Part shown: positions 1 through 20,415 of the stretch, one piece after another | Position numbering within the stretch: the stretch's first letter is position 1 | Layout of the letters: every line of letters starts with the position of its first letter | DNA from: Minutocellus sp. GHC0000111 | Lineage: Eukaryota | Length of the DNA: 64,000 bases | Reading direction: 5' to 3' | Assembly: GCA_977018835.1 (NCBI GenBank) | Contig: OZ361256.1 | Coordinates: 5,146,001 to 5,210,000, forward strand | Program-made: the position numbers and the translations under genes | Notes under the pieces: model-generated | Seen by the model: only the letters and a program-made list of their open reading frames with translations | What the model was told of the DNA's origin: nothing | Database searches by the model: none

Positions 1-74
1 CGAGAGACAGTTCTCCAACCAAGCAAGCATGCAGAGGAAGTGCCGCGTCACATCATGGCTGTCAACAAACCCTA

Positions 75-1932
75 CGAAGTCGTTTCGCGAGAAATCGAGC
101 GCAGGGTCGGGACCAAAACAGCGACTTTTTGGGCCCGCAACCGCCTGAATCTTAGATCTACCGGCATTGAATACATGTACAATGCAAAGTACATGTATTG
201 CAGCAGCTAGTATCCAGATCTACAATCCAATCTAGTATTATTAAACACAATATAACTTAAAAGCACCGCAGGACTAATTATCCATGGTTGGATCAGCAGG
301 AGGAGGAGCGATAATTTTCCCATCTATCCGAACCATGCCATTTTCAGTCGGCCTGAAATCCTTTCGCACCCCAACATGAATGCCTTCACCGTTTCCAAGA
401 AAATCATTGTTGCCTTTTGCAACGATTACCTTCTTTGCAATTCTATGAGCCTGGATGTATGCCGATGCGATCTTCCAGTTTTCCAGCCCCATCCAAACTT
501 CCTCCGCTGCATCCCAAGTCTGATCCTCTGTCAAAACCTTCAGCCCCTCCCGATCGCGGCACAACATTGTATGCTGCTTTGACATGCAAGGGAAAACAGA
601 CAGATCAAGAACATTCATATGGGGCATTTGCGGGGCCTGAGGTTCCCAACGCCATCCCTTGTCCCGACAGTATCCTTCCACATATTCCACAAATTCAGTC
701 TCGGCATGGGGCCCAGCATTGTCGCCCTGGAAAATAGGGACATAGCCTTCAAACTTTCCACCAGGTCCGACCAAAGCCTCAACATCCGGAAACATCTTGT
801 TCTCAAATAAAGCTTTCAGTGGGAACTTGGGATTATCAAGGGTGCCATGGCTGCATCCAGTCACCGCGCAATCCACAAGGTGTAGATCGTCTTTCTTCCG
901 AACCACCGGGCCGCAATATTTGATTCTACCATCTGCCTGCCGCACCGCCTCCCTTACCATCTGCCTCGCAATTTTATGCGCCTGAGCCCGAAAAAGTCCA
1001 AGCTTGAACGCAATGCCGCCATTCTCAATGCTGTCAATAAAAGCCAAGGCAGTGACAGCCACCACCATGCACTTGTTGATGTGATTTCGGTGATATGCCG
1101 AGAAGGACCGAGGATCAATACCCAATTCTGCAACTTGCTTGGCATGCGATCGAAGAACCAAGCCCCAAAACCACTTCTCATCGAACATAACAAGGAGAAA
1201 CTTGCCACCGCCGAGCCCCCAATTGTTTCGGAATTTCCGCGCAAATGCCAAATGTTTCTCCATCTGATGTGTAGTAAGGAGAGGGATGATCCTTTCGGCA
1301 TAGTACCGGAACCCTTCCCGCGACATTATCCACCGCCGTATTGCCGAGTAGGAACACCAAAAGTTGACATCCACCTCCAGCTCCCGCCAAGATTCCCGAG
1401 GATTTCGTATCAGAGCATCAACAATAACATCTCGAATGTATGGCTGCATAGCCAGATGAGATCTCCTCTTCATCTCCCACATCGCCTTCTCAGATGCAGG
1501 TAGAGCACCATACGCCTTCATCCATCCCGAAAATCGTGCACCATGCTCTGCGCTGGACAGCACCGAATAGTCCACCTTTGCCTGCTCCCTGCACTTGGCA
1601 ATTGCAAAGAGACATGGTGCAGTATACCGCCGGGTCGCCGTTGCAAGATCGTCGATGACAGAACGGAAGGCGGCCGAATCAGATGAATCATCGGCACTCG
1701 TTGGGAAGCAGTATGCCGGTCCAACCAAGTGCGACGAACGCGTCCATTTGATTAGAGCCGCTGAAATCTAAAGTCTTATCCGAATTATTGTTTCACATGA
1801 AGATAAATCAAAATTAGAGTAAAAATAGCCATTTTCTTAAATATTTCAGCATGACTATTCTTCGAGGCTCTTTTCAATCCCCTCGAAAGCAGTCAAAAAC
1901 CGGGCGCTCGATTTCTCGCGAATCTGACCTCG
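75..1932 (-). mobile_element. Tc1/mariner-superfamily DNA transposon (plant-mariner-like), about 1.86 kb
   Basis: Imperfect TIRs: 75-102 cgaagtcgtttcgcgagaaatcgagcgc and 1904-1932 (reverse complement cgaggtcagattcgcgagaaatcgagcgc). Flanked by TA at 73-74 and 1933-1934. Encloses a transposase ORF. Confidence 0.88.
274..1728 (-). CDS. DD38D mariner-like transposase with N-terminal HMG-box-like segment
   Basis: Motifs FDEKWF, FQGDNAGPH and QAPQMPHMNVLDLSVF parallel plant-mariner DEKWF / QQDNAxPH / QPPNSPDxNxLDLxxF. 38 residues lie between the 2nd and 3rd Asp. The ORF has no ATG at its 5' end, so the start is uncertain. Confidence 0.85.
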   Translation of the reverse strand: MVGPAYCFPTSADDSSDSAAFRSVIDDLATATRRYTAPCLFAIAKCREQAKVDYSVLSSAEHGARFSGWMKAYGALPASEKAMWEMKRRSHLAMQPYIRDVIVDALIRNPRESWRELEVDVNFWCSYSAIRRWIMSREGFRYYAERIIPLLTTHQMEKHLAFARKFRNNWGLGGGKFLLVMFDEKWFWGLVLRSHAKQVAELGIDPRSFSAYHRNHINKCMVVAVTALAFIDSIENGGIAFKLGLFRAQAHKIARQMVREAVRQADGRIKYCGPVVRKKDDLHLVDCAVTGCSHGTLDNPKFPLKALFENKMFPDVEALVGPGGKFEGYVPIFQGDNAGPHAETEFVEYVEGYCRDKGWRWEPQAPQMPHMNVLDLSVFPCMSKQHTMLCRDREGLKVLTEDQTWDAAEEVWMGLENWKIASAYIQAHRIAKKVIVAKGNNDFLGNGEGIHVGVRKDFRPTENGMVRIDGKIIAPPPADPTMDN

Positions 1933-2141
1933 TACATGTAATAGATCAAGATATTGTTTGCAGTTTTCTAGAGTTAGATATTGATAAGGTCACAGTACGG
2001 TTGCAAATATGCACGTGAATGTGTTCATTTCTCTCATTCCTTGGCTGCTTGGCTGGCACGTTCAGACTCTGCCACAGCAGCAAGCAAATTGCTTCTTCAT
2101 GACGAACCCTTCTCATAAAAAGAAACTCCGCTCTGCTGCTG

Positions 2142-4192
2142 CTATGGGTAGTGACGCTAGTAAAAAAAGCACAAAATTTTGCAAAAATTTATTTTTTTCG
2201 TAGAAAACCTCGCACGCCATAAAAAACGTCTCCACCATGGGAATTTTTTCCGATGCTGCCGCTCGGCGAATTCCGCGTCCCTTGCCTTCATATGGCTGAG
2301 ATAGCAGGGACTTTTCATATGAGCCGCTTCCCCTCTCAAAGGGCTTTCGTGTGATATGAAAAGTCCATGCTAGTTCCACATCTTTCTCGAGATTTCCTCT
2401 CATCTTTATACACCCCATAAATGTTCGTTGAAACGGACGTTTCCGCGTAAAAAGCATGACGTTTTTTTCTCTTCAACCTCACAATCGAGGCAACTATCGG
2501 ATGGGCTCCACCATTCGCTCCCACAACCTCATTTCTTGGTACTTCTTCCACCAACTATCGTCAAAAGTATTCATTCGCACAACATTATGCGAATCTGCGA
2601 TTTTGGAGCTCCCAGCACATCTCGTGTTGTGCTTTTCCTGCACAACTCGGCAAAACGGCTTCTGACGACACCCTCTGCATGGCATTATTGACCCACGACC
2701 GACCTTTTACCCCAATCAATGTCGATATTTGCCTCCTAAATCTTCGTCCAATGAGATACAATGTACGCTTCTGATGCCGAACACAACTGTTCTGGATTTT
2801 GGGGTGGTTTGGCGTTGCTGCATCTGCGGCGGTCGGACGGCGTCGACTCTCCACGACCGCCCAACCAAGAGGGACATGCAGCATGGATGTACCGAGAGCA
2901 GATGCCCAATCTGGCATTATATTCTTCGACGAGATATGGTATGGTGTGTTGCCAAGAGCGTGTTTGTGGTCTGGGTGATGGAAACATCGGCACCGGCGCA
3001 ACGATTGTCACTTCGTTACGGGGGAGCAGAATCGCTCTGTGCTCCCTTCCCACAAAAGCAAGAGTAGTAACGAAGATGCCAATTACCCATCCATCGTGAT
3101 TCCGACCCTACCACACAGTGTTCGATATTAAAGATCATTGGCCATCGACTGGAGACGATCGCATTCGTTTCCGGCGTGCAGAAAAGGGAGGAGGAGTGCC
3201 GGTCCTTTCGGAATTGAATGTCTTTCGTCCTCGTTCATTTGTTTTGATCTAAACTGCAAGTTTGCCACTCTCAACGCAGTAGAAAGCGATCGACACGACC
3301 GTGATGGCATTTTGGTAGCTCCTACTCCGTCTTGGGGCGGCGGAGGGGAAATGTATCGAGAGCAACGGTGAGAATTTGCAATCAATACCTTTTTGTTTAC
3401 GCAGAACAATAATTCATGTTTGTTCATTGCCTGTGGAAGGTGCTAGTTCGGCCACGACCGTATCCAAACTGCTCATTCGGTGGATTCATGTCAGAGATGG
3501 CATGACACATGGTTTTACTAGCTATTTAGGCGGTGTTGATGATGACAGAACGTCGTGGTGATGTGGTTGGGATTTCGTCAGGCCAGAGTGACGATGCCAG
3601 GTAGAAAGCTAATAAATGAAACCAAAGTTCGTAGCCAATATCTACTATTTGTGTACCAGGGGCGGCATAGACCCATCTTCTTATAATTATGATGATATAA
3701 GCCGTTTTCCGGATGATACGGGGCCATGTTTTAGATGAAGAATCAATTGCAATCTCCAGAAAACAGGTGGAAATCGGGCACTTCTGTATCTTCTTTATTT
3801 TTATTTACCAACACGTGATTTGAGGCCACTGAAGATATCAACGTATACAAATGGATAAGAGAAGGCATATGTGATGTATTGGCGGCATATCTAGATTCAG
3901 CATGTGGGGCATTGCTCCGTATCTTAATGAGCAAATTGGCTCGAGGGGAAGAAATCGAATATGACAATTTCGTATTTACAAATATGAAAAATATTTTTTT
4001 GAATATGGAAAAAGAAACTTCGTTCTTCCATCGTATAAGATGTGTCCCTTTCCAGAGGCCGAACGGCAGTGAGATACAAAAAGATGTCGAACTATGATTA
4101 ACTCAACATAGTGTAGAGTAGTTTGGTGGGGTCAGTTGTCATGAATTGCATTTTGGTAGCACGGTGAATTTTACTAGCGTCACTACCCATAG
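2142..4192. mobile_element. Non-autonomous TIR DNA element (about 2.05 kb) inserted in a (CTG)n tract
   Basis: Perfect 25-bp inverted repeat gctatgggtagtgacgctagtaaaa at 2141-2165 and 4169-4193. Flanking direct repeat is ctgctgctg (2133-2141 / 4193-4201) or gctgctgc, depending on the boundary chosen. Internal 13-bp inverted repeat at 2308-2320 / 2354-2366. No long ORF. Confidence 0.8.
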
Positions 4193-4367
4193 CTGCTGCT
4201 GCTGCTCCATTTCGGACGGCACCACGGCACCAAGTCACACAATTGGACCGTGTGTGGCTGGGACGCCTACTTATGCCGGACCTTCGGCACTGCGATACTG
4301 GCACCACACCCTCCTCATCGGTGGATACACCCCCGGCCCACTACAAGGCCTTCTGCGATAGCTTTCC

Positions 4368-6632
4368 ATGAAGCGCTTGTTCAAGAAGAAGAAAAGCCGC
4401 CGCAGCTCGAGCGAGGCAGAGCAGGATGTACCACCGGCACCACCTCAAGTCCACGGCGTCGGTTTTGTGTCCGACTATGAGCAAGTGGCCAGTGCCAACG
4501 ATAAGGTCCTCGCAATACTTGGTGTTCACGACGGCCCGCCAGCCGGAACTGGAACGCCGGCAAGGCGGTATTCTGCCTCGGCATCTAGCATGCTGGATGG
4601 CTCCCAGGACAGCAATCCAGACCGAAGGTCAACGCTCACGAAGGAGGCGTCCCGACAATCACTCCACAAGACGGTAGCTCGGGGGCTCGGCCTGGGTGGG
4701 CGGAAAAAGTCAAACGAGAGGGCCTACAGCGGCAGTACAAATCTAACGTCGGTCAAAACGTCCGACCATCTGATATCGTCCGATCATAACAGTGATAATG
4801 CAAGGAAGAGAGGAAGTCGAGGTGGTGACAGCCAGCGCGATATTGAGCACGAGCGGTCACTTGGCCTGCCGGTCGAGTCGTCCGATGATCAGCCTGTCTC
4901 GATGATGAGAAGAACTCAGATAGATCATACGCAGCTTCTTTTTGAGACCAACTTTGAGGAATTTGCCATGAAAGAGCGACTGAAGGATTGGGCCAGCTCA
5001 TTCCGCCGGACCGACCCTCGATACCAAATACTCAAATACTTCAATGATGTCGCCACTAGCGGTGTAGACAACATTGAGGAGGACGGAAACGTAACACGCG
5101 CCGAACTCTTGAGTCCGATCTTGGCCATGTGGCGACGATGTGCGGCATTTACGGTTTGGCGCCCGACATCTACTGAGGCAATCCAAAAGATGATGCTCGG
5201 CCGTGGCACAGGCAAGGGCCTCAACATCAAAGGAAAGAGTGCCAAGGGCGGAGACTTGAGTGGCTACGTCCCCTTCGTGCAGATCAACGATGACAATCAC
5301 AAATCTTCCATTAAGATCCTTCCAAAAGATGCGGAAATTCGAATCTTTTACCGCAAGAGAGAAATTCGAGATGAGGCCGCAGAGAGTCTTCGTGAAATTT
5401 CCAAGCAGATGTCCGAAGCTGTCAAGGAGGCGAAGAAAGTACTGGAGGGCGAAGCATCGACACCGGAGTGCAGCAAAGAGGAAGCCGAGAGGCGGTTGAC
5501 ATGGTGGGATGCATCCAACACGGACGTTGCCCTTATCGATGATTATGCCAGCAACAAAGGCTGGGGACCATTCGCCAAATCCTTTGGAGTGGAGATATCC
5601 GAAAGGCTAATGTGGGAGGCTTTTGTGTGCAGACAAGATATTACACGAGAGGCCGGGTCAATCTACGACACTGGGAGGCGTTCAGAGCCAGCCTTCCAGG
5701 ACATGAATTTTGGTTCTACTCGTGTGTGCAAAAAGGGTGACCCAAGAACAGTGATTTGGCAGCACTCCGACCCCAAAAAAGGACAGGGTCCTCTCGAGCC
5801 CCGCACCCTCTTGGTCGCCTACGAGGAGAACAGGCTTGTCCTACCTGTAGTGTCAGACTTTGATTGCTTCCTCGTTGGAACTCGCGCGGTGCAGTTCGAG
5901 AAGCCCATTCCCAATGAGCAAGTAGATATGCTGAACTGGTGCATCGATAATATAGAAGGAGTCCTCGACGCGCCGGGATCTGATCCCTGGTCCAAGAGAT
6001 GGCTCGATGTGCTGAAGAAGAATAAGCCAACAGGCAAAGGTGCTCACATTCCTCGATTTGGATATGGAGATCCCAAAACTTATTCTATTATGGAATGTGC
6101 GGTGGGAAGGTTGGGCCAATCTGGCGCTGTCCGTCACGGAGCCGAATGTTTCAACTACTATTTCCCGCAAGACCTTGACGACGAGTACTTGGTCATTCTT
6201 GGTGATGCTGACGCAGGAAAGGTACCCTGGATATACGTTAACGAAGAACAACTCCGCGATCTCTTGTGCGAAAAGATCGACCAAGGCTTCACATTCCCTC
6301 TCAATCCGAAGTGGGTTCTGTGTGACCCTGGTTGGAAGAAAGTCTATGATAAGCTCCTCCTCAGTCAGAAGAGCAATGTGCAGGCCTCTCTTGATTGCTG
6401 GTACCCGCCAGAATCTGGCATACGAGAGAGAATTGAGTCTATCTACAACAAGCATCAAGTTGGATTTGGTATATTAGGCGAGGATGGCATGTCGAGTCCA
6501 GCACCGCGACGACCCCGCTTTGAGAGGAGGCAAGAGGCCGGCACAAGACACCTCGAACTGGAATTGGAGGAGCTTCAGCTGTTGAATGAATTAGAAGAAG
6601 AGGACGGCGAGGAGGAAGAGGAGCAAAACTAA
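4368..6632 (+). CDS. Class II (edema factor/CyaA/ExoY-like) nucleotidyl cyclase-like protein, 754 aa
   Basis: WRPTS...GKGLNIKGKSAKGGDLSGYVPF (5211-5276), PVVSDFD (5844-5864) and VRHGAECFN (about 6129-6155) match EF motifs FRPVN...TKGLNVHGKSSDWGPVAGYIPF, PLTADYD and VNHGTEQDN in order. Confidence 0.75.
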   Translation: MKRLFKKKKSRRSSSEAEQDVPPAPPQVHGVGFVSDYEQVASANDKVLAILGVHDGPPAGTGTPARRYSASASSMLDGSQDSNPDRRSTLTKEASRQSLHKTVARGLGLGGRKKSNERAYSGSTNLTSVKTSDHLISSDHNSDNARKRGSRGGDSQRDIEHERSLGLPVESSDDQPVSMMRRTQIDHTQLLFETNFEEFAMKERLKDWASSFRRTDPRYQILKYFNDVATSGVDNIEEDGNVTRAELLSPILAMWRRCAAFTVWRPTSTEAIQKMMLGRGTGKGLNIKGKSAKGGDLSGYVPFVQINDDNHKSSIKILPKDAEIRIFYRKREIRDEAAESLREISKQMSEAVKEAKKVLEGEASTPECSKEEAERRLTWWDASNTDVALIDDYASNKGWGPFAKSFGVEISERLMWEAFVCRQDITREAGSIYDTGRRSEPAFQDMNFGSTRVCKKGDPRTVIWQHSDPKKGQGPLEPRTLLVAYEENRLVLPVVSDFDCFLVGTRAVQFEKPIPNEQVDMLNWCIDNIEGVLDAPGSDPWSKRWLDVLKKNKPTGKGAHIPRFGYGDPKTYSIMECAVGRLGQSGAVRHGAECFNYYFPQDLDDEYLVILGDADAGKVPWIYVNEEQLRDLLCEKIDQGFTFPLNPKWVLCDPGWKKVYDKLLLSQKSNVQASLDCWYPPESGIRERIESIYNKHQVGFGILGEDGMSSPAPRRPRFERRQEAGTRHLELELEELQLLNELEEEDGEEEEEQN

Positions 6633-6749
6633 ATGTACTAAACTTATTCGTCACAACTTGTTAAGATTTTCTGGCCGTTGGGTTTCGCTGTTGCCTGCCT
6701 CCTAGCTAGCACGTAGCGGTGTTAATTCTTCTGCTGATTTTTAAGACGC

Positions 6750-7955
6750 TTATGTTATGTTTGCACGTACGAGTTCGTAAGCTTTGTGACTATTCGCAAA
6801 CGCCAAAATATCCGCCAGTTTGGGACCAATACCGGTGATTTCCTTAAGCCCGTGGGTCCCTCGAGGGACAATTCCTCCGAATCTACTGCACATCTCTTTT
6901 GCAGCCTTGACGATATGCTCGGCTTTGACATTGGCAAACAGAATTGAAGGGATTTGCTTTGCAATTTCTTTTGGATCAGCCCTTGAAAGATTCTTGGCAT
7001 TGAGGGCGCCCCCATCGACCGCATCTTCCTTCTCACCAAAATACTTTCGCAAATTATCCATCGCTGCGCGAACGATTGGCTCTCTCGATTGCGCATGGAG
7101 CCGTGCAGCAACCAGAACTTGAAATCTTCGTACTTCGAGCGATTCATTCGGATCGCCTAGCGACTGCCATTTCGCTCGAATCTCTTCTTGCTGTTCTTTT
7201 GGCAACTGGCAAACAGGAACATAATCATTGCCGTCGCATTTGTTTTTCGTCGAGGTTCTGCGTCTCTTTTTATAATCCTTCTGCTTTCCCTGTGGTATGT
7301 TCTTGCTACCATTCTTCTCTGTGCTTCGTTCCTGAGTAGGTACATCGAGTGTGGAGATGGGCCTCTTAGGTTTGTCATTCCTCTGTCTCACAGGAGGCGC
7401 ATCGCCACTGCCAAAGGCAAACGAAGCAAATGGATTCAACACATCGGTACTGCTCGTAGTAGGGATCGCATTGGATTCACCAGCATTGGCTTCAGTGTTT
7501 GTCTCATCCTCACTTGGAATCTCAGCATTGCAACCATCAATGTTTCCGTTCTCGGCAACGTCTCTGGCTGCATCGTCCTTTGCATCGTTTTCCTTCACTA
7601 AGGTGTCTTCTCCGGGCATTTCAATGTGTTGATGTTCTGGTGCTGCGTCCAACTGTGCGAGTATCTCCGGCATTGGTGCTGTTGTTTGTGCTTGTACCTT
7701 GGCGTCCACTTTCCGCTGATCACCCTCTGCCTCGTCGTCCTCCTCCTCGCTATCATCAATGTCAATGCAGACAACGTCACTACCGCCGCTCTTAGCACTA
7801 GCCACGCCCCGGGGAAATATTTGCCAACCGTCTTTGTCGAGTTCGATGCCATCAACTGCCATTACTGACTCATCTTTGCTGCCGTCCTCGTTCTGTTGTT
7901 TTGGTGGCCCATCCGCGCACTTTGCAGGGGCAAAGAATCGACTAATTCCTGACAT
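6750..7955 (-). CDS. HhH-GPD (endonuclease III/NTH1-like) protein, C-terminally short
   Basis: RRFQVLVAARLHAQSRE, FANVKAEHI and HhH motif LKEITGIGPKLA, after a long acidic disordered N-terminus. Ends about 20 aa after the HhH. Start placed at MSGISRFF. Confidence 0.75.
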   Translation of the reverse strand: MSGISRFFAPAKCADGPPKQQNEDGSKDESVMAVDGIELDKDGWQIFPRGVASAKSGGSDVVCIDIDDSEEEDDEAEGDQRKVDAKVQAQTTAPMPEILAQLDAAPEHQHIEMPGEDTLVKENDAKDDAARDVAENGNIDGCNAEIPSEDETNTEANAGESNAIPTTSSTDVLNPFASFAFGSGDAPPVRQRNDKPKRPISTLDVPTQERSTEKNGSKNIPQGKQKDYKKRRRTSTKNKCDGNDYVPVCQLPKEQQEEIRAKWQSLGDPNESLEVRRFQVLVAARLHAQSREPIVRAAMDNLRKYFGEKEDAVDGGALNAKNLSRADPKEIAKQIPSILFANVKAEHIVKAAKEMCSRFGGIVPRGTHGLKEITGIGPKLADILAFANSHKAYELVRANIT

Positions 7956-8621
7956 TATTGAGATCCTAATGCATTGGCGCTTGATGCCGTGATAGTCAAA
8001 GCCAACAGCCATTCAGAGTACCGGCATGTTGCGATGTATGTTGCCTGCCTGTTGACCTGCCAACTAACTGCCAACTCAACTTGACCGACGACGATGATGC
8101 CAATGACATCAGAAAGAAAGAGCATTGGCCTTGGAGAGAGCTCGGAGTGAAAGTACGGCGACTTCCGCACGAGATTAGGGTCCTTGGTAGGACGTCAAAC
8201 TCGTGAGACAAAATTCACAAGGACGGCGAAGAATCGATGTCGAAGACAAAGATGGAAGGATACACCTTCCCCGTAGAATGAACGTTGATATGTCGCAGAC
8301 AATAAACCGTAAAGAGAATAAAGTAAACGAAGAGAGAAGATCTGACTATTACTAGTCGATCCGTAGATTCCTGCTTGTCTAGTACAAAGTTGGCTTTGCA
8401 AAGTTGACAAAAACTAAAAAAATTATGATGCGAGAAAGACGAGACGATTGTGCTGATCCAAGACCGACTCCGCCTTGGATCGGCGATCTTGTAGCGATCT
8501 TGGATTGTTTCATCTACGATACTACTGAGCCAAGCATGCTGTACTTTGTACAGTATCAACGCTCAACGCGCTACTTGTCTCGGGCAGCTGAACTGAGATA
8601 CCGTCGTTTCTGTTTGTGCCA

Positions 8622-8679
8622 AAATGACAACAGAAAGAAACATCGGCTTGCAAATGACAACAGAAAGAAACATCGGCTT
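8622..8679. repeat. Tandem repeat, 30-bp period, 2 copies
   Basis: aaatgacaacagaaagaaacatcggctt at 8622-8649 and 8652-8679. Confidence 0.9.
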
Positions 8680-9172
8680 CTCCAACTCTCGGCTCGCTCA
8701 TCGGCATCAGGACATCATCATTTACAATAGAGCTGCTCCTTGCTGGCGGCTTGTCGCTCACTCTCGTGGACTTGGCTGCTGCCCAGGAGGGAGTCAAAGC
8801 TAACGAACATGGTTTTGATGGTGGCCATCGGCGCCGCCGCGTATACATGTAAGTGATGGCATTTCTCTGTCCATTAATTCAATACGTGCTGGCGCACCGG
8901 CGTGCCATTCTCTCATCCATTTGGCAGGGGCTTTTCTATCCCTGCGTTCATACTTGTAACTCACCTCGTTCAACTGAACTCACTCAAATGATAATGGTTG
9001 ACCAGACGCCAACAAGAATAACGGCGGGGTTGGTGGCGATGGGGACTCTTCTAGCCTGCCCCCGGCCGAGCCTCTTGAACCTGAGTTCCTAGCGACCCTA
9101 AAGCCGATCAACCTACTGCCCCTGGAGCGTACGCTGACTCTCTTTGAAGCTCCCAATGCTACGATAACTTTC

Positions 9173-10699
9173 ATGGATGGCTCGCCTCAGGTTGCCACCG
9201 ATTGGCTCCGTTCGCGAGTCAGTGAGGTTGTTTACCGAAATCCGTGGCTCGGTGGATATCTCGGCAAAGACAAGAGCCGTGGTGGGGCAGTGTCGTTGTT
9301 TTATGACCCTTCGAGTCATGAAGTCAACACTGATGTATTTACCTCGTTCGAGCCAGGAACTATTGAATTGACCCGAGAAACCAAATGCGAGGAATTTGGG
9401 GAGGTATTTGCAGGTCATGATGTGGTTGTGAGATGCAATGCTGATTTGGTAGGTCGGAATCAGCCCATCTTTCGTGTGTGCGTCATTCCAGATGCAAAGG
9501 AACCGAACGATAAGTTTGCTCTCGTTGTCAGTTTGTCTCATGTGGCTGGCGATGGTTACACGTTTCATAAGATTTTTAGATTCCTATCGACGGATTGCAA
9601 CACGACTGATATCGAGGAAATGAATCCCATTCGAAAGCGTGAATTCACAGAAGCAGTTTACGATCTATGCGGTAGTGAGGAAGCATTCTACGTCGATAAA
9701 ATCTCAAGGTCTCCCATTTGGTCAGCGTTCACAAAACAGGATGAGACTGTGATTGTTAGGGCGGCTTTCTACATAGATGAAAGTTGGGTCGAGGGCCAAA
9801 AGGAGGCCTGGGAGAAAATGTCTAGGATGGAAGAAGCGGAAAAGCTTTTGCTTGGCAATGATAGTGCCAAAGACACAAAAACAAATTTGCCCCCCCTCGG
9901 TGAAGATGATGAAGTGACTTCTGATGGTGATCAAGACATACCCGCACTGTCTACTCAGGCGCCATCCAAACCAAAGCCACTGCCGACCAACTTCAAAGTT
10001 TCCTTTGCTTCTCACCAAACCGCTTCGCACATTACAACGAATGATATTATTACAAGTTGGTTCTTCAGGATGTGTGATGCAACTATCGGCCTTATGCCCT
10101 TCATGCTTCGTGAACGAATTCCACAATTCAAATCAGTAGACGCAGGCAATTATTCCATCACGATACCCTTTCCTCGAAAGGACTATCATTCTCCGATGCT
10201 AATTCGCGATGCGCGGCCCACGGGGCGTCGGGTTAATACCGACATACCACTTCCTCCTCATAGAGCAGAAAACCGTTATGGGATTTCCATCGATTGGAGA
10301 GGAGTAGGATTCAAAAGGGGCGGGCTGAAGCTAGGACCAAAGGGCGAATGCAAGCAGGTGTTGCATTTGCCGTGTTATCAGTCGCAGGACTACAAGTATA
10401 TCCCCAAAAACTTCAGTTCCATTCACCTTTTCAATGCCGGACCTGATGGGGAACCAGCTGTTTCTGTTGTCTGCCCAGATTTTGTCATGGAGCGCGTGCT
10501 TCAATCAGGAATTGTCAAAAGCATGATTAATGAAGGACAGATCAGTACATGTGAGCAAGATACGTTTGTCGAAGCAGTTGTTGAGGCGAAGGAGGGTAGG
10601 CGTACAAGCGTTTTTGCTGGTTTGCTAGACCCTGAAGCTGCCAAAGCCCTCAATGCTGCAAGCGTTCTCAGCACTATCGCCGATGAAGATGCAGAATAA
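9173..10699 (+). CDS. CoA-dependent acyltransferase-fold protein (HxxxD); 5' end probably further upstream
   Basis: 508-aa ORF with LSHVAGDGYTF (HxxxDG). The frame stays open upstream of the Met (KPINLLPLERT...), suggesting unresolved upstream exon(s). Confidence 0.65.
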   Translation: MDGSPQVATDWLRSRVSEVVYRNPWLGGYLGKDKSRGGAVSLFYDPSSHEVNTDVFTSFEPGTIELTRETKCEEFGEVFAGHDVVVRCNADLVGRNQPIFRVCVIPDAKEPNDKFALVVSLSHVAGDGYTFHKIFRFLSTDCNTTDIEEMNPIRKREFTEAVYDLCGSEEAFYVDKISRSPIWSAFTKQDETVIVRAAFYIDESWVEGQKEAWEKMSRMEEAEKLLLGNDSAKDTKTNLPPLGEDDEVTSDGDQDIPALSTQAPSKPKPLPTNFKVSFASHQTASHITTNDIITSWFFRMCDATIGLMPFMLRERIPQFKSVDAGNYSITIPFPRKDYHSPMLIRDARPTGRRVNTDIPLPPHRAENRYGISIDWRGVGFKRGGLKLGPKGECKQVLHLPCYQSQDYKYIPKNFSSIHLFNAGPDGEPAVSVVCPDFVMERVLQSGIVKSMINEGQISTCEQDTFVEAVVEAKEGRRTSVFAGLLDPEAAKALNAASVLSTIADEDAE

Positions 10700-10804
10700 C
10701 ATGAATATAGGGTTTATAACGAATACCTGCACATTAAAATCAACATTAGCTGCTAGCTCGTACAGTCCGGAATTAATTTTGAATGCCCTTCTGCTCGATT
10801 CTCG

Positions 10805-12337
10805 TTAGTAATCGAACTCATTGAAGGGAAGGGCGGCCCCGGCTTGTCGCCAACGCGAGTTTGCTCCGAAATTCAATTCAGACACCAATACGTCCACTCG
10901 GAGGTTTTGTCCCTTGGTCACAGACTCATTGCCAAAAGGGTCTAAAAATGATTTGCTCAGTTCCAACTGGCCTTTGAAAAAGTAGCACAGCAGCATGGTC
11001 GCTGGAATCGATAGAGTGCCCAGCTCTGGGTAAATAGCCAGCGGCGAAAGGATCACCAACGAATCTGTTAGGACCTGGAGCAATTGCATGTATGCCAAAG
11101 GCATTCTACCCGAAGTTTGGTCGCCAATTGTAAAGTATTCGGCCCTCAGCTGCGTAATCTGTCTCAAAATGTTTTCCTCCAAACCATTTCCACCGCGTAG
11201 TGCACCACTCTGCAGTCCGTGCATGACATGAAGCCCAACCCACTGAAGTAAAACATAGCAATACTGCGTTGGACTAAGGCCTGAGTTGAGAAGACTCTCT
11301 CGTTCTTCCTTTGTGATTTCGTCTGCTTTCACTAGCTCCTGCAATCCTTCGGGGCTTAATAATAATGGGCCGATTGCACGCTCTTCAATGTCATCGGCGT
11401 CCAGATCTTCGTTTGATGCGTCGACGACGCCATTGGCTCCCGTCGGTGTCGCAGCCCAAAAGAATGTATGCGAAAGCTTTACCATGTGTGTCACTTTGTC
11501 CACCACAACTTCTCCTCGGCTACTGTATCCACTGGTATTGCTATCGAACGCAAGAATCTTTGATGCATCACAATCCTCTCGCTCTGCTCCGACAGTGACC
11601 AACAGACAAATATCGTTGATGCGGCCTTGGATGGCGCGAGTTGTAAAGTAAACTGTCCTCCAATGTTTGTAAGCCTCGGCAGTAAAGAACGTCAGTAAAA
11701 ATGTGCAGAGTGTCAACATGTAGCTCCACAGCTTGTTAATGCCCTGCAGTTGCTGAATTATAGGGTCATCTGCTGGAGGTATTAATAGGACCGACCACGA
11801 TGATCCCGAAAGATTATGAACCGCCACATCCAACAATCCCGATGTCAGCCCAGCAATCAGGACCGGCACGATCACCAACTTCAACACTGTGCCTTGATAT
11901 TGCGACCAGAGCCACAAAGCGTCAGGTTCGTATTCTCGAATGATTGCCCTGTTGGCAGAGTCTGCTACTGCCCAATCTGTTAGCTCATTCAACTGTTTTT
12001 TTGACCAGCCAGGGAAGGATGGCCTGCCCTCATCAAGAGCTTCATCGAGTGCACCCTGGAGGGATCGCGACGATACCTTTGGCGCCGTAGAGAACAATCG
12101 CGTCGTTTTCGCCGCCGGGTCGAATGTGCGATGATTACTGTTACTCAAGATTGCTGCTGAAGAGAATGCCAATACATGGACTCCTCTCCCTGCTGCTGTC
12201 AATCCAAGCAATGTGCGATGATTATTGTTGGTCGAGATTGTTGCTGAAGAGAATGCATGCACTCCTCGGCTCCCTGCTGCTGCCAATGCAAGACATGATG
12301 CGACAGCTGGTGTGATGAGTGATAACAAGCCGCACAT
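10805..12337 (-). CDS. Bestrophin-like anion channel, predicted plastid-targeted
   Basis: TM segments, LLTFFTAEAYKHW...RAIQGR, PLAY and FLDPFG motifs. Signal peptide ending VHA-F followed by a Ser/Thr-rich transit-like region. Confidence 0.8.
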   Translation of the reverse strand: MCGLLSLITPAVASCLALAAAGSRGVHAFSSATISTNNNHRTLLGLTAAGRGVHVLAFSSAAILSNSNHRTFDPAAKTTRLFSTAPKVSSRSLQGALDEALDEGRPSFPGWSKKQLNELTDWAVADSANRAIIREYEPDALWLWSQYQGTVLKLVIVPVLIAGLTSGLLDVAVHNLSGSSWSVLLIPPADDPIIQQLQGINKLWSYMLTLCTFLLTFFTAEAYKHWRTVYFTTRAIQGRINDICLLVTVGAEREDCDASKILAFDSNTSGYSSRGEVVVDKVTHMVKLSHTFFWAATPTGANGVVDASNEDLDADDIEERAIGPLLLSPEGLQELVKADEITKEERESLLNSGLSPTQYCYVLLQWVGLHVMHGLQSGALRGGNGLEENILRQITQLRAEYFTIGDQTSGRMPLAYMQLLQVLTDSLVILSPLAIYPELGTLSIPATMLLCYFFKGQLELSKSFLDPFGNESVTKGQNLRVDVLVSELNFGANSRWRQAGAALPFNEFDY

Positions 12338-12615
12338 TTTACTGGTACTCAAATACTCAAAAATGCTTGAGTAGAGTGAGGGTGCTGTCTGCAGCAGTCA
12401 AGCAAGTGTCAGTGACAAGGCGGCCGCCCTCCAGTGCTACCGGAAGGGCTCAGCGGCGCTTTTCATTGCCTTGTCGCCATGCCATCGCCAGAGCGGGCGG
12501 AGGCAGAAATAAATGAGATGCCTCATTTCTGAATGACGTATTGCAGTGTCGCCAGCCAGATCTTTTCAATGATCATGGCTGCTGATGCCGCCAAGCTCAA
12601 AGCCCGCCGGCCAAG

Positions 12616-15759: not shown

Positions 15760-18700
15760 TTACACGCGGAGAAGCCATTTGTTCAGATCTAAAAGCTCGA
15801 GCCAAGGCATTGATTGGAAGCCACCAGCCGTGTAATACTGGGCAAATTTGTCAAAATCGATTGGGCCGTCCTTGATCTTATCAGTAGCCACCTTGACCGC
15901 AAATTGTGACCCGGCTTCGATCACATTTTGGATAGAGACAGTATCATCGCCGAAACTAGCACCACCTCGCATTTGCACTATCGAGGCTTCTCTGTGATCA
16001 TCCTCGAGGGTAGGGCTCGTCGTCACTCGGACAAGGACAGTCAAAAATGATTTAAGATACAAGGTCATGTCGGCATGGCTGAGCTTGCCATCGTTGTCGA
16101 CATCGACCAGATCAAAGGCCAATTCGAGCTTATCGCTCTTCCGACCGTTGCACAACACTGTAATACCAGCAGCAACCTCCAAGGCGCTGACTTTGTCCCT
16201 TTTCTTCGCATCGAATGTTGTGAACACCGTAGACAAGAGTTCCATTACCTGCCTTTTCGTCTCGGGCTTCGTAGGAGTCTTGCTCAAGGCAAGAACCCCC
16301 TCCATTGCCGCATTGAACTGTTGCCTATTGAGGGTTGGTGGCCCGGACCTCGGCTTAGAGGCATGTTCCATTACTCGCGAGCTCGCGGCCCCGCCATCAA
16401 TCCTGCACAAACCACTGTCAATGACGAGCTCCCGGAGGTGTCGGACGCGACGCTGGCTAATGGATACAGTGTATCCACCGTGGGGGCCGGCAGCAAGGAG
16501 ATTGTATTTGAGTGACTGTTGCGAGTGTACATGATGCGAGTGCGGAGGGGGCGGTCTCATCATCATCATTTGTTGGTTGCTAGGAGGCATCGATCCAGGC
16601 GGGAAGGACATCGGGTGCGGGTGCTGATTTTGGCGCTGGTGTGACGGGCCAGCCACCGGTGCAGGTCGCTTTAATTGCCGTTGCTGATGGGGTGCCGAGT
16701 GTTGTTGTTGCACCGGTACTCTTGCTGGAGCGCCACCGCTGGGTGTGGGAGGTGCCGGGGCAGCAGTACTGGTAGCTGGTGGTGGTGCAGTCCTCCTTTC
16801 AGTGGCAGCTGTAGCTCCATCACGAGACTTGGAACTACCAGAAATTCTTGGCGCTGGCAGATTCTTGGGGGGAGGTGGCTTACTAGCACCGATATTCTCT
16901 TTCTCCCTGGCAGTTGAGGGCCCACCGGCGCTACCGCTGTTACCCATAATGTTAGCAGCAGCAACGCCTGGAACGGGAGCGGTGCTCTCACCAAAGAGAT
17001 CGAAGTCATCGTCCATATTCATGTCGAATATATCATCAAGGAAATCATCTGCACCGCCGGCAGCTAGGATATCGTCAACGCCACCGCCACCGGCCTTCTT
17101 GTGCAGTACCTGGCGCTGTTGAGGTGGCGAAGAACGGGGAGGAAGGGGCTTCTCCTCGGCATACACCCACTTCTTCAGATCCAAAAGCTCCAACCACGGA
17201 GCGGTCTCGAAGCCACCCTCGTTGTACCATTCGCCAAATTCGTCAAAGTTCACCCGATCCTGCTTCTTACGGTCCCACTGAAATTTCATCACATCCTGGG
17301 AAATGACGTGCGCGGTGTCATAGATATAGCGGCTCACTTCCTCGGCACTGAGGTCGAGACTTTGCTTGCAACACGAAAACATCACAATGAGGAACGATCG
17401 GAGGAAGAGGAAAAGCTCTTTCCCATCCAGCGACTTGGGGGGCATGGGAGTTTCGTCCTTCTTGCCCTTTCCCTTCTTCTTCGACTTGGCGCCAGTGGTG
17501 GTATCAGGGCGGCCATCAAAGAGGCCGAATGCAAAGGCCAGCTTCATGCTCTTCTTACCGCCGCATAGAAGAATCAGGCCGCCCATGAGCTCATTGACAG
17601 CCACTCGGTCAACCTGGTGCATATCAAAGCTGAGGAAGAAGTTCTTGAGAGTGTCCTTGGCTGAGATGCTATCGGCAGTTTTTGGACCCTTCTTGATCTT
17701 GTTCTTCCTTCTCGTTGCCTTCATTATCTTGTCCATCGAGGCAACGAAGGTCGCTTGGTCCACGTCCGATGCCTTGCCGACTCCACTCTTGTGTTTGCGA
17801 GATAAAAACTCGGGCAAGGCCGGGAGCGGCTTCTTTTTGACATGTCCATAGAGTGAATTCCACAACTGCTCGGGTGTCATGGCAGAAAGACAAAGCTCGG
17901 TTACCACGGACTTGACGTAAGTGGCATCCTCTCGAAGAACGACCAGGGACTGATGATTGGCCAAAGGGAAGGTAAACATAATGCCCGCGTGTGGCTGATG
18001 ATCGCCAGGCGAAGGATAGGGTCTCTTCGGAGGCGCACGGTTGGTGTTAATGAGAGAGAGGAACTTGGTCAAGTCCAATAGCTCCAGCCACGGCGCGATA
18101 GTATAGCCACCATCGGTATACCACTGCGCAAAGTCCTCAAAGGTCGCCATCATCATGTCTTCCCTGATCGCCTTGTTTGCCCTGGCAGGGCCACCAGCCC
18201 TTCTTTGCTCCAGAGCATTGATAAACTGGTCCTTCGTCCATTGCGAGCCATTTTCAACGGCAACAAACATATCCGATCGCATTTGCTCGCGGAGCATGCG
18301 GCTTGTTGCGGCGGTCTGCTCGGCAGATTCGCTCAAAAGGGAAATACCCACAAGCATGGTCAAGTATGAGCGCAGATACCGAGATAGGCCGATGGAGCAC
18401 AAATGCCCGGTCTTGGCATCATCCAGGAGCTCAAACGCAGTTGCTAGCTTGGTACTCTTATTCCCGGCACAGAGGAAGGAGAAGCCAACGGCTACTTCCT
18501 TGGCATCGACCAGCCCTTTGCCAAGTGCCGAGCAGCTGTTGTCAAAGCAAGAGAAGAAATTCATAAAGAGATTCGTGTACGTGCCCATCTCGGCGGGGTC
18601 CAGTGCTGATGGAGCGATGTCGGCAAGGCAGCGTCCGAAGGTCTCCTGGCGCAGCAGCACACCGGCACCGGTTTGGTTGGGCTCGGCGTGACGCAAGAGG

Positions 18701-20415
18701 ATGGCCGATACATCGTCCGGGCTCATTCCCGACAGGCCCGTCCTGGTTACAAGATCCTTCAACATGCGCAGGTTGCCCTCCGTAATCCGAATCTGGAAGG
18801 GCTGAGCCGAATGCATGGCACCGGTAAAATCGAAGGAGACGACGGTCCTGGCAGATCGCGGTGAAGGCTGGGCTGGCTGTCGGGGAACGGCGGCACCCTC
18901 GAGGAATACATTGGGCGTCATGGGACCGAGGCCCATCATGTCCTCGCCACCGACCCCGGCGGCGGCTTCTTCGGCGATGACGCCCATGAGAGGGTCGGAA
19001 GCGTGCGCAGCGGCGACCGCCTCCCTCCTTTGCGCGTAACGGCTAGACTTGGCCGCTGCGGCGGCTGCGGCCCGGCCAGCGTAGTCCCACTTGGCCAGGT
19101 CGAGCAGCTCTATCCAGGGGATGAGCTTGAAGCCACCGGAGTTGTACCAGTCACCAAAGGCCTCGAAGGAAACGCCGCCGTCTGCATCCACTGCTTCTGA
19201 GGTAGACGTGCTCCGGATGTGGTCGGCAAGTCGGTCGGTGGCAAACTTGGCAATCTCGGCGATCTCGTCCTTGGCATCGTCCATCTGCCAGGGGTAGTCG
19301 GCCCCGGAGTTGGCGGACGTGACGGCGGAGTGCGGAGATGCACTACCAGTGCTCTTGGCGGCCTTGGAGGGCGGGGTGCTGGAGACGGCATCGGGCTTGG
19401 GTGCTGTTGTCGACGCTGGTACAGATGCTCCGGCCTCGATCCCTTCCTTCCTGTGGATGCAGATAGAGATGGACGTGAGGAAGGATCGAAGTAGGGCCGA
19501 GACGGTACCGTAGGAAAGAGGGCCCGGAACGACAATCTCGTCGTCACCGTCACTAGCCCCGTCGCTGCAGTCCATGGCGTCGCCCTTGCCGTTCTCTTGG
19601 CTGGAAGGAGCGTTGGCCCCATCTCCTCCCCCAAGAATGACAAAAGCGGACACCAGCTTGCCAGACTTGTCCATGTCCAGGAAGAGGAGGAGACGGGCCT
19701 CCATCTCGGCCTGGGAAACACCGTCCGCCCTCATCTGCTTGAGGTAGGACTGGATGAAGGAATCGGTGCATCGCTCGGCGGCTGGTACCAATAGAATGTG
19801 CAGAGGGGGCGTCTTCTTCGTCGACGTGGAGCTGCTGGTGTGGCCGCTGCTATTATTGTTGGCACGGCCAGGAGAAAAGGAGGGCTTCGTCCGCACCCCC
19901 TCGTCGTTGGATTCCTCCATCGGACTGGGACTGCGCGCCTGTGGCTCCTGAGGCTGCTGCTGTTCCGAAGCGGTACCGCCGGCAGTGGCACCACCAGCCT
20001 TTGAAGCTCCCTTGGCCGGTTGCTTCTTCTTTGCCTCGGACATGACGGTATCTGCAGCAGCCGCTCGTCCCGTCGACCCATCAGCAGTGCTGGTGCTGTT
20101 GACTTTGTCCGTGGCAGCAGCACTCCTCTCCTCCTGGATGGTCCGCAGAGCCTCATTGAAGGAGCGGCTGGCATCGAGCATCCGTGCCGCGTCGGCCTGG
20201 CTAATGGACAGCTTGATCTGGGTGGGCGCTTGGCCGGCTCCTGATTCTTCGTTGCTATTGTTGGTTCCCGCAGCGGTCGACGGGTGGCCGCGGAGAGCAG
20301 TATTCCCATCGCTGCCCCCCGTCGACATGGCGGCCGTGACGGCCGTCCCCTTGGTGGCCGGGGTGTCCAACATCATGGGATCGGTGCCGGAGGCTCTCGC
20401 AATGGCGGCCGACAT
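15760..20415 (-). CDS. Large EF-hand protein with four repeated calcium-sensor-like modules, 1551 aa
   Basis: EF loops DMDKSGKL, DDAKTGHL and DVDNDGKLS. Three LCxGxKSxKLxxAF segments and four copies of F.xF..[WY]Y..GG....PW[LI]ELLDL.K[WF]. Confidence 0.85.
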   Translation of the reverse strand: MSAAIARASGTDPMMLDTPATKGTAVTAAMSTGGSDGNTALRGHPSTAAGTNNSNEESGAGQAPTQIKLSISQADAARMLDASRSFNEALRTIQEERSAAATDKVNSTSTADGSTGRAAAADTVMSEAKKKQPAKGASKAGGATAGGTASEQQQPQEPQARSPSPMEESNDEGVRTKPSFSPGRANNNSSGHTSSSTSTKKTPPLHILLVPAAERCTDSFIQSYLKQMRADGVSQAEMEARLLLFLDMDKSGKLVSAFVILGGGDGANAPSSQENGKGDAMDCSDGASDGDDEIVVPGPLSYGTVSALLRSFLTSISICIHRKEGIEAGASVPASTTAPKPDAVSSTPPSKAAKSTGSASPHSAVTSANSGADYPWQMDDAKDEIAEIAKFATDRLADHIRSTSTSEAVDADGGVSFEAFGDWYNSGGFKLIPWIELLDLAKWDYAGRAAAAAAAKSSRYAQRREAVAAAHASDPLMGVIAEEAAAGVGGEDMMGLGPMTPNVFLEGAAVPRQPAQPSPRSARTVVSFDFTGAMHSAQPFQIRITEGNLRMLKDLVTRTGLSGMSPDDVSAILLRHAEPNQTGAGVLLRQETFGRCLADIAPSALDPAEMGTYTNLFMNFFSCFDNSCSALGKGLVDAKEVAVGFSFLCAGNKSTKLATAFELLDDAKTGHLCSIGLSRYLRSYLTMLVGISLLSESAEQTAATSRMLREQMRSDMFVAVENGSQWTKDQFINALEQRRAGGPARANKAIREDMMMATFEDFAQWYTDGGYTIAPWLELLDLTKFLSLINTNRAPPKRPYPSPGDHQPHAGIMFTFPLANHQSLVVLREDATYVKSVVTELCLSAMTPEQLWNSLYGHVKKKPLPALPEFLSRKHKSGVGKASDVDQATFVASMDKIMKATRRKNKIKKGPKTADSISAKDTLKNFFLSFDMHQVDRVAVNELMGGLILLCGGKKSMKLAFAFGLFDGRPDTTTGAKSKKKGKGKKDETPMPPKSLDGKELFLFLRSFLIVMFSCCKQSLDLSAEEVSRYIYDTAHVISQDVMKFQWDRKKQDRVNFDEFGEWYNEGGFETAPWLELLDLKKWVYAEEKPLPPRSSPPQQRQVLHKKAGGGGVDDILAAGGADDFLDDIFDMNMDDDFDLFGESTAPVPGVAAANIMGNSGSAGGPSTAREKENIGASKPPPPKNLPAPRISGSSKSRDGATAATERRTAPPPATSTAAPAPPTPSGGAPARVPVQQQHSAPHQQRQLKRPAPVAGPSHQRQNQHPHPMSFPPGSMPPSNQQMMMMRPPPPHSHHVHSQQSLKYNLLAAGPHGGYTVSISQRRVRHLRELVIDSGLCRIDGGAASSRVMEHASKPRSGPPTLNRQQFNAAMEGVLALSKTPTKPETKRQVMELLSTVFTTFDAKKRDKVSALEVAAGITVLCNGRKSDKLELAFDLVDVDNDGKLSHADMTLYLKSFLTVLVRVTTSPTLEDDHREASIVQMRGGASFGDDTVSIQNVIEAGSQFAVKVATDKIKDGPIDFDKFAQYYTAGGFQSMPWLELLDLNKWLLRV

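Follow-up and report, generated by a model that had tools for sequence, protein, structure and literature searches.

An intronless diatom gene for a protein with a predicted class II nucleotidyl cyclase fold and its large algal family

Introduction

Regulated synthesis of cyclic nucleotides (cNMPs), together with receptor, channel or phosphodiesterase (PDE) partners, is in eukaryotes normally the task of the class III adenylyl and guanylyl cyclases. Their fold is non-homologous to that of the class II cyclases, which a 2022 review defines as secreted by bacteria only (PMC9223806). Class II includes the oedema factor EF of Bacillus anthracis, the adenylate cyclase domain of Bordetella CyaA and ExoY. 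The catalytic roles of the class II residues are given in section 5.4 of the same review and the ExoY residue assignments, including a Lys at the position of EF H351, in PMC10553838. In algae, EF-like structures were reported in 2023 as an unannotated cluster with a partial Anthrax_toxA match and proposed as possible toxins (Barrio-Hernandez et al., PMC10584675, Fig. 5b). The passage on this cluster reads the proteins as toxins, whereas we favour endogenous signalling; residues, taxonomic spread, fused domains and regulatory motifs are not treated in it. By its description, the cluster of Fig. 5b is very probably the same family as the one analyzed here.

The window under study is a stretch of 64,000 nucleotides from the diatom Minutocellus sp. 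(contig OZ361256.1). It carries a gene whose product, P0001, is compared below with the bacterial enzymes.

Results

Gene and protein layout

The gene and the regions of its 754-aa product are as follows:

4368..6632, + strand: class II nucleotidyl-cyclase-like protein gene (P0001), 754 aa, intronless; single ATG-to-stop ORF, no RNA joints
4368..4406, + strand: polybasic N-terminus, aa 1-13; from the sequence, with basic N-termini also in close relatives
4467..4526, + strand: short helix, aa 34-53, conserved in the subclade; model helix 36-50 and alignment
4923..6482, + strand: folded core, aa 186-705; pLDDT mostly 85-98, structure matches, dN/dS 0.047
5157..5276, + strand: motif I region, aa 264-303; R265 = EF R329, K283 = K346, K288 = H351, K290 = K353
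5229..5843, + strand: CB/LID-equivalent subdomain, aa 288-492; separate model, pLDDT 95
5844..5864, + strand: predicted metal-binding DxD, D497/D499 = EF D491/D493; profile and structure alignments
6132..6188, + strand: switch B, aa 589-607, H590 = EF H577, N596 = EF N583; profile alignment
6282..6371, + strand: switch-C-equivalent segment, aa 639-668, a conserved family-specific motif; VIA ranges end at 645-669
6537..6629, + strand: acidic C-terminal helix; corresponds to the initial half of the C-terminal motif seen in the family, with the basic second helix missing

An earlier reading of this DNA from the sequence alone had called the gene intronless, which is in agreement with the RNA contigs: the gene is present in the RNA libraries and no joints occur inside the ORF. 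The contigs of X1-X3 leave 3274-4224 and 6554-8200 uncovered, a gap that was given no weight. The same reading had described a protein without signal peptide, with a disordered N-terminus and an acidic tail, and all three features were recovered. The best hydropathy within the first 60 aa is 0.45, with no signal-peptide-like stretch, pLDDT is below 50 at residues 1-35 and 51-183, and the acidic tail is found at the C-terminal end. Around the short helix, aa 1-185 are Ser/Arg-rich and otherwise disordered, and the polybasic N-terminus is a possible membrane or docking signal. According to the model, the folded core holds a class II cyclase CA subdomain, an enlarged LID and family-specific flanking helices. 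Comparison with the orthologue in a relative (L003) gave an overall dN/dS of 0.068, indicating purifying selection, with 0.13 for aa 1-185, 0.047 for aa 186-705 and 0.022 for aa 481-668. NCBIfam assigned none of its families to the four proteins searched, and Rfam had no match within positions 1-12000.

Predicted fold

Pfam Anthrax_toxA (PF03497) matched the protein with 20.3 bits (E=5.9e-4) at a curated cut-off of 25 bits; a relative, P0485, exceeds this cut-off with 29.3 bits. The sequence-level doubt is removed by the structure, which matches class II chains only. In a VIA comparison with 48,161 chains, the top seven rows were all class II cyclases (Z 12.5-7.7) and the next, unrelated one scored 2.8; class III chains were absent from the VIA rows. 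EF was matched with Z 12.5 (rmsd 3.2 Å, 230 residues aligned), CyaA with Z 12.2 (235 residues, model 214-667 on 8-363) and the ExoY chains with Z 9.8-10.9. In Foldseek, class II chains fill every row to rank 24, with 18 matches at E<=0.001; the TM-scores by query are low, at 0.14-0.22, with an rmsd of 15-20 Å. The protein shares only 12-16 % identity with the toxins (16 % for EF), and only about 230 of the 520 core residues align. The confident model matches EF, CyaA and ExoY only, and the protein has a predicted class II fold made of CA and CB subdomains with the catalytic groove between them.

EF was also the best PDB match starting from the single sequence (E=0.002). A family profile aligned with the EF chain in the PDB with all three motif blocks collinear, the first with E=5e-6 to 3e-5 and the DxD and switch-B blocks as weak extra stretches. 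The huntingtin match of profile A1 was rejected as an artefact of low-complexity columns. For the LID modelled alone, VIA rows 1-7 are class II chains (Z 3.2-4.0), and in VIA its borders are in register with the toxins (286 to EF 349 and ExoY 84, 496 to EF 490 and ExoY 211). It comprises about 205 aa compared to about 140 in EF; 63-76 residues align to the LID of the toxins, and about 135 of the 205 are without counterpart. Foldseek found nothing for the LID model at E<=0.001, the DxD-to-switch-B piece alone matched no class II chain, and the ESM Atlas gave only scores below 0.9 in unrelated clusters.

With EF (PDB 1xfv, 1k8t) the protein shares the CA-subdomain fold, the LID borders and the order and spacing of the R329, K346, K353, D491/D493, H577 and N583 equivalents. 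It differs in the replacement of H351 by Lys, in a LID that exceeds that of EF by about 65 residues and for the most part cannot be aligned with it, in the absence of a PA-binding domain and of a signal peptide and in being encoded by a eukaryotic nuclear gene. ExoY of Pseudomonas (5xnw/7p1g) and of Vibrio MARTX (7p1h, 8bjj) has the same fold, the Lys at the EF-H351 position and the same LID register (K288 = K86, D497 = D212), but in contrast to ExoY, P0001 is not injected and has extra N- and C-terminal helices. The CyaA domain (1yrt, 1zot) shares the fold; here, the RTX haemolysin part is missing and the calmodulin-type site of the family is a separate C-terminal helix, itself absent in P0001. 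As an algal nuclear gene product that is encoded in a syntenic position and lacks a signal peptide, P0001 stands outside the bacterial toxin group as defined in PMC9223806, while sharing the same core.

Active site

The class II motifs had been proposed to follow the order seen in EF, and the family profile bears this out for all three blocks. Likewise, both Lys (K283, K290), the DxD (D497, D499) and the switch-B His (H590) are indeed retained. The other His of EF, H351, is replaced by Lys (K288) as in ExoY, so that the His of the EF/CyaA subgroup is absent. Conservation was analyzed in 273 complete homologous domain units taken from 302 proteins, and 270 of these keep all ten checked residues. 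K283 is present in 273, K290 and R265 in 272 each (the equivalents of K346, K353 and R329, in this order), D497 and D499 in 271 each, the switch-B His in 272 and its Asn in all 273, with the H590-N596 spacing as in EF; the Lys at the EF-H351 position is found in 273/273 units. Among further representatives, 79 of 88 fit all three motif patterns. In switch B, 11 of 18 positions are at least 90 % conserved across the family. The switch-C-equivalent segment, whose VIA range ends match the switch C region of the toxins, reaches this level at 9 of 30 positions. Taken together, the alignments suggest that the catalytic side chains converge on one pocket.

A large algal family

Clustered at 50 % identity, the family comprises at least 716 clusters with E<=1e-30. 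The representative search listed the best 150 of 1516 matches, and among the matches listed the named members come from diatoms, dinoflagellates and one haptophyte genus. The class II core seen by the earlier reading in this alga is confirmed, and it is not peculiar to this alga but belongs to a very large family. Some genomes hold an expanded set of members, which are named 'hypothetical' or by a fused domain, e.g. 'PKAR'. P0170 is labelled 'Alexandrium'; we rejected this label, as the protein clusters at 90 % with Thalassiosira pseudonana, a diatom that has one member (XP_002289312). Within the diatoms, the presence of the gene is vertical.

Among 390 proteins, 82 carry a cNMP-binding domain, 27 a DEP and 23 a PDE domain; further fusions involve Ion_trans, LRR, PH, ankyrin and Macro domains. 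Of the PDE domains, 16 hold the metal-binding motif, six are cut short and one is without match. These fusions are a property of paralogues and do not occur in P0001 itself.

A search beyond algae gave 39 pattern matches in viral contigs, none of them a relative, no match at E<=0.001 in BFVD and an insignificant best class II match in plasmids (E=0.9). The GTDB pattern scan yielded 26 stretches, one of them a relative. We rejected this relative as alga-like DNA that had been merged with a bacterial bin: it sits where bacterial genes meet DEP-repeat DNA, and none of 400 other genomes of the same phylum matched (1/401 searched). The proposed domestication from a toxin is unsupported, because neither a rooted tree nor a close bacterial relative was found.

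The C-terminal tail

In 184 of 288 family tails, the protein ends in a basic helix with a median net charge of +5. The strict spacing of the 1-8-14 class, defined by hydrophobic anchors at positions 1, 8 and 14 (PMC4076516), occurs in one register in 136 of the 184 tails, while no other register has more than 14. The 1-8-14 spacing is a loose pattern, and 149 of the 184 tails had been selected with a pattern in which position 8 and the charge are fixed beforehand; of the remaining 35 tails, 17 match. At the level of pattern, the family tail fits Ca2+-dependent calmodulin targets of this class.

P0001 has no 1-8-14 window with a net charge of at least +3, neither in the tail nor elsewhere, and the basic helix is not encoded in other frames past the stop codon. 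Loss of the helix in the P0001 subclade is placed with UFBoot 100, the sister pair retains the helix, and two complete transcript-derived orthologues share the P0001-type ending. Since this subclade lost the calmodulin-type helix, the earlier description as 'cofactor-activated' suits the family better than P0001. Tail loss was not significantly linked to gain of CNB/DEP domains (sign test, p 0.5; 10 tree changes with about 2 independent informative events). No calmodulin gene was found in the viral contigs scanned. Both the basic 1-8-14 tail helix of the family and its loss in the P0001 subclade are new here.

Function

The predicted class II fold and the intact catalytic set make it likely that the protein acts in the diatom cytosol as a source of cyclic nucleotides for the cell's own signalling, with cAMP or cGMP as the probable products. 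An endogenous cytosolic signalling role, already put forward by the sequence-only reading, is strengthened by relatives that are fused to PDE, PKA-R-like cNMP-binding, DEP, ion-channel and LRR domains. By analogy to the chemistry of EF and ExoY, the NTP would bind between CA and LID, D497/D499/H590 would hold the metal and K283/K290/R265 the phosphates, and the 3'-OH would attack the alpha-phosphate with release of PPi. Most family members may well be gated by Ca2+-calmodulin via the basic 1-8-14 helix. With about even confidence, we propose that the helix-less P0001 subclade would be calmodulin-independent at that site and controlled via the conserved N-terminal region, with the basic end, the short helix and basic-x-Ser sites as candidate elements.

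Compatible with signalling is a second possibility, which we regard as rather unlikely: in line with the sequence-only reading, the same enzyme could be activated in the manner of the toxins, with calmodulin or actin binding the core at its switch A and C surfaces despite the missing tail helix. Every characterised class II enzyme needs such a cofactor (PMC9223806), and the switch-A- and switch-C-equivalents hold conserved Trp, Gly and Pro residues (8/63 and 9/30 positions at >=90 %). However, profile alignments gave no sequence match of these segments to the cofactor surfaces of the toxins, the family evolved a separate calmodulin-type helix, and even this pattern is missing in P0001.

That the fold serves another role, as a cyclic-dinucleotide nucleotidyltransferase, in target AMPylation or as a nucleotide-binding scaffold, appears improbable. 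The large LID portion without toxin counterpart, the family-specific helices flanking the core and the low identity to the toxins would fit such a role, but all residues named catalytic for cyclisation are retained and the relatives are fused specifically to phosphodiesterases acting on 3',5'-cNMP and to cNMP-binding domains.

Even less probable is an algal toxin or defence effector directed at grazers, parasites or competitors, as proposed in the passage of PMC10584675. It would agree with a fold otherwise known only from toxins, with the family expansion and with LRR and Macro fusions, which are readable as immune-type. In contrast, P0001 lacks a signal peptide, only 2 of 120 first-search matches have a signal-peptide-like start, and the Pfam matches of the scanned proteins include no delivery domain. 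Strong purifying selection and the conserved gene order also speak against an effector, and a fused PDE would destroy the product.

The locus and the neighbouring TIR element

Upstream of the gene, the window contains one further feature:

2142..4192, no strand assigned: non-autonomous TIR element; inverted repeats of 24 nt without mismatch, flanked by a direct repeat of 9 bp

The element has no long ORF, loose ends were seen at its borders in other runs, and it ends 175 bases before the ATG, exactly the distance noted earlier. In L003, the orthologue is followed by the same HhH-GPD gene and preceded by an F-box gene, with no TIR element upstream. The element is an unrelated recent insertion outside the cyclase system.

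Bacterial contamination, which the sequence-only reading had taken into account, or a recent transfer by way of the TIR element is largely refuted and only very faintly probable: the gene is intronless, lies close to the element and has a relative in one GTDB genome, but it is located outside the TIRs in a gene order conserved in L003 where the element is missing, its sequencing depth equals that of the neighbours in two samples (141 vs 158; 193 vs 186-213), its GC3 of 0.57 falls inside their range of 0.45-0.65, its sequence is nested among diatom sequences, and the GTDB relative lies at a junction of bacterial genes and alga-like DNA, with no match in 400 other genomes of that phylum.

Discussion

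Class III cyclases share with P0001 the proposed role of regulated cNMP synthesis and differ in needing a dimer of catalytic domains. With evenly balanced confidence, we propose that class III is accompanied in diatoms, dinoflagellates and haptophytes by a second cyclic-nucleotide signalling system based on class II. It would consist of a Ca2+-calmodulin-gated cyclase in single-chain modules, and P0001 would be a derived helix-less form. As part of this proposal, the module partners would be a phosphodiesterase, so that one chain both makes and destroys the messenger, a PKA-regulatory-like sensor for feedback, or an ion channel. The boldest version, which we hold to be improbable, places a eukaryotic class II signalling enzyme at the root, from which EF, CyaA and ExoY would have inherited their dependence on host cofactors; the direction of transfer is unrooted.

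A family with an intact active site in three major phytoplankton groups would overturn the bacteria-only definition of class II. It would provide non-toxic natural enzymes for studying activation of this fold, and the origin of the calmodulin and actin dependence of the toxins becomes a testable question. If true, the signalling of diatoms, dinoflagellates and coral symbionts would include a so far unannotated source of cyclic nucleotides.

Gene, locus and host

The 754-aa cyclase-like protein P0001 is encoded in the window among the following features:

84-1922: second TIR element, transposase ORF flanked by 24-nt arms (92%)
274-1521, minus strand: Tc1/mariner-type transposase ORF inside the second TIR element
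2142-4192: non-autonomous TIR element, 24-nt perfect inverted repeats, 9-bp CTG-repeat flank
4368-6632, plus strand: P0001 gene, single ORF
15760-20415, minus strand: 1551-aa ORF with repeated EF-hand-like segments, recognized by eye

As the sequence-only reading had proposed, the gene is intronless, with no joints in RNA contigs, and lies close to a TIR element, the last base of which (4192) is 175 bases ahead of the ATG. Judged by TSD length, we take this element to be MULE-like; its loose ends imply other copies and RNA contigs cover part of it. Downstream, positions 8140-8690 are probably a small mobile element, because this high-depth repeat has several loose ends and is skipped by one contig of sequencing run X18. 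A bestrophin-like gene region (10888-12372) is also skipped by one X18 contig and has about half the depth in that run; it is a hemizygous deletion or insertion.

The P0001 gene is real, constrained and probably transcribed. Read depth over the gene equals that of its neighbours in two samples (one possibly the source of the assembly), and its GC3 is ordinary for the window. A large part of the ORF is represented, at 95-100% identity, in contigs from RNA libraries (five runs, two studies). Such contigs prove neither transcription nor its level, but the cluster that contains an 82% identical orthologue includes complete transcript-derived proteins. The dN/dS ratio is 0.047 for the core (residues ~186-705) and 0.022 for residues 481-668. 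At locus L003 of a relative, the orthologue is 86% identical and shares the downstream HhH-GPD gene, with an F-box gene and no TIR element upstream; locus L002, which may be of the same organism, has this order together with the next gene. Named relatives in the first homologue search are diatoms and P0001 is nested among diatom sequences (diatoms vs rest 100/100, 38-sequence tree), from which we infer a diatom host.

Fold and active site

The class II motifs had been reported in the order of anthrax oedema factor (EF), and in a profile of 60 relatives the three blocks are indeed collinear with EF (E=5e-6), blocks 2 and 3 weakly. EF is also the best PDB match by phmmer (E=0.002), and Pfam Anthrax_toxA matches at E=5.9e-4, under the family cut-off. 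In an AlphaFold model built with 103 sequences, confidence is high over a core spanning roughly residues 186-702. Foldseek returned class II chains alone down to rank 24 (18 matches at E<=0.001), with low TM-scores and an rmsd of 15-20 A. Using VIA-align against 48,161 chains, the top seven were class II and the next reached Z 2.8; the scores were Z 12.5 for EF (rmsd 3.2 A, 230 residues), 12.2 for CyaA and 10.9 for ExoY. The LID, or CB subdomain (residues 286-496), modelled alone with a pLDDT of 95, matched the same seven chains first, weakly (Z 3.2-4.0, 63-76 of 211 residues). Its ends are in register with the toxins (286 = EF 349/ExoY 84; 496 = EF 490/ExoY 211), which together with the few aligned residues indicates that the hinges are kept and the distal part is rebuilt.

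The retention of both lysines, the DxD and the histidine was borne out (K283 = EF K346, K290 = K353, D497/D499 = D491/D493, H590 = H577), and R265 and N596 correspond to EF R329 and N583; residue roles follow section 5.4 of PMC9223806. EF has H351 where P0001 has K288, but ExoY, described as active in PMC10553838, also has a lysine there. Three homologue searches yielded 302 proteins and 273 complete domain units, 270 of which keep all ten checked residues; the three motif patterns were matched by 79 of 88 further representatives. P0001 has the predicted structure and the residues of class II nucleotidyl cyclases, and it is predicted to work like one. In contrast to P0001, the class II toxins are secreted and bacterial, and PMC9223806 restricts the class to cyclases secreted by bacteria. 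The N-terminus of P0001 has no hydrophobic stretch, in line with the claimed absence of a signal peptide, and the expected disorder (residues 1-35 and 51-183 at low confidence) and acidic tail are present.

Family range and earlier work

The first homologue search found 938 family proteins among 7,993 scored candidates, a further search 91 longer ones, and a third, with another query, 397 shorter ones among 7,998. An unfiltered profile search gave 1,516 clusters (50% identity) at E<=0.001, the best 150 of them listed, 1,213 at 1e-10 and 716 at 1e-30. In the proposed homologue survey, named members belong to many diatom genera, dinoflagellates (Polykrikos, Biecheleria, Symbiodinium, Effrenium, Durusdinium) and one haptophyte genus, Chrysochromulina. 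An unrooted tree of the 273 units comprises diatom (194), dinoflagellate-name (59) and haptophyte (20) clades, labelled after named tips, which are a minority. Limited scans, blind to distant forms, revealed no credible prokaryotic or viral members of the algal clade. On L001 (G001:C54, positions 1-11449), a contig of a GTDB genome, bacterial shikimate-dehydrogenase and AcrB genes adjoin DNA of algal appearance that bears a class II cyclase gene encoding multiple DEP domains; this contig is probably chimeric.

Algal EF-like proteins have been glimpsed before and their existence is not new: PMC10584675 describes an unannotated algal protein cluster whose structures partly match EF, and proposes toxin systems for it. 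Its members very probably belong to the present family, an overlap that may bear on novelty. No paper on an algal class II cyclase family was found in the literature searched, whose coverage excludes most subscription journals. None of the papers searched describes an active site kept intact over hundreds of clusters, fusions to signalling domains, a calmodulin-type tail or the loss of this tail in the P0001 lineage.

Domain fusions

Of 390 family proteins examined, cNMP-binding domains are present in 82, DEP repeats in 27 and a class I phosphodiesterase (PDE) in 23 (E about 1e-70 at full length, metal motif in 16 of the 23); Ion_trans, LRR, PH, ankyrin or Macro domains occur in others. Forms from the dinoflagellate clade look like a cyclase to which a PKA regulatory subunit has been joined. 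P0001 itself stands alone, the fusions belonging to paralogues. Partners that bind 3',5'-cyclic nucleotides or break them down have been joined to the family repeatedly, for which a cyclase used inside the cell is the simplest explanation; judged from these paralogues, P0001 is probably an endogenous cNMP cyclase.

Several architectures stand out. In P0188-P0203 and others of the dinoflagellate clade, the cyclase comes immediately after a PKA-R-like inhibitor site and a pair of cNMP-binding domains; two of these also have Ion_trans in precomputed Pfam. P0185 and P0186, in the clade of the haptophyte sequence, are channel-cyclase chimeras with the cyclase between two Ion_trans domains. P0182 and P0183 have ~400-680 residues inserted in the LID and a C-terminal Macro domain. 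Tandem cyclase domains are found in P0010, P0012 and P0016, the second unit of P0016 having lost several motif I residues as a possible pseudo-enzyme.

C-terminal tail and regulation

Of 288 tails at least 45 aa long, 184, spread over all three clades, contain a two-part motif immediately beyond the core, in which an acidic helix precedes a basic one (median charge +5). One register of the 1-8-14 anchor spacing, strictly defined as in Table 1 of PMC4076516, fits 136 of the 184, a count partly built into the choice of seeds (17 of 35 non-seed tails match), and any other register at most 14. Among fusions with a tail, the basic helix is kept in 23/23 with PDE, 2/51 with cNMP-binding and 0/8 with DEP domains, a pattern with few independent events behind it. 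On balance, these tail sequences suggest that the family would typically be gated by Ca2+-calmodulin.

The P0001 tail consists of the acidic half alone, followed by the stop, as in its close relatives (clade UFBoot 100); the sister pair of this clade keeps the basic helix, and a search past the P0001 stop found none encoded. By analogy with the toxins, P0001 may be activated through the switch A/C surfaces of its core. As to control through the N-terminal region, this part is constrained (dN/dS 0.13), with a conserved helix (34-53) and six basic-basic-x-Ser/Thr sites. There is about an even chance that the P0001 subclade represents a derived form which would be controlled otherwise than by calmodulin, perhaps via this region.
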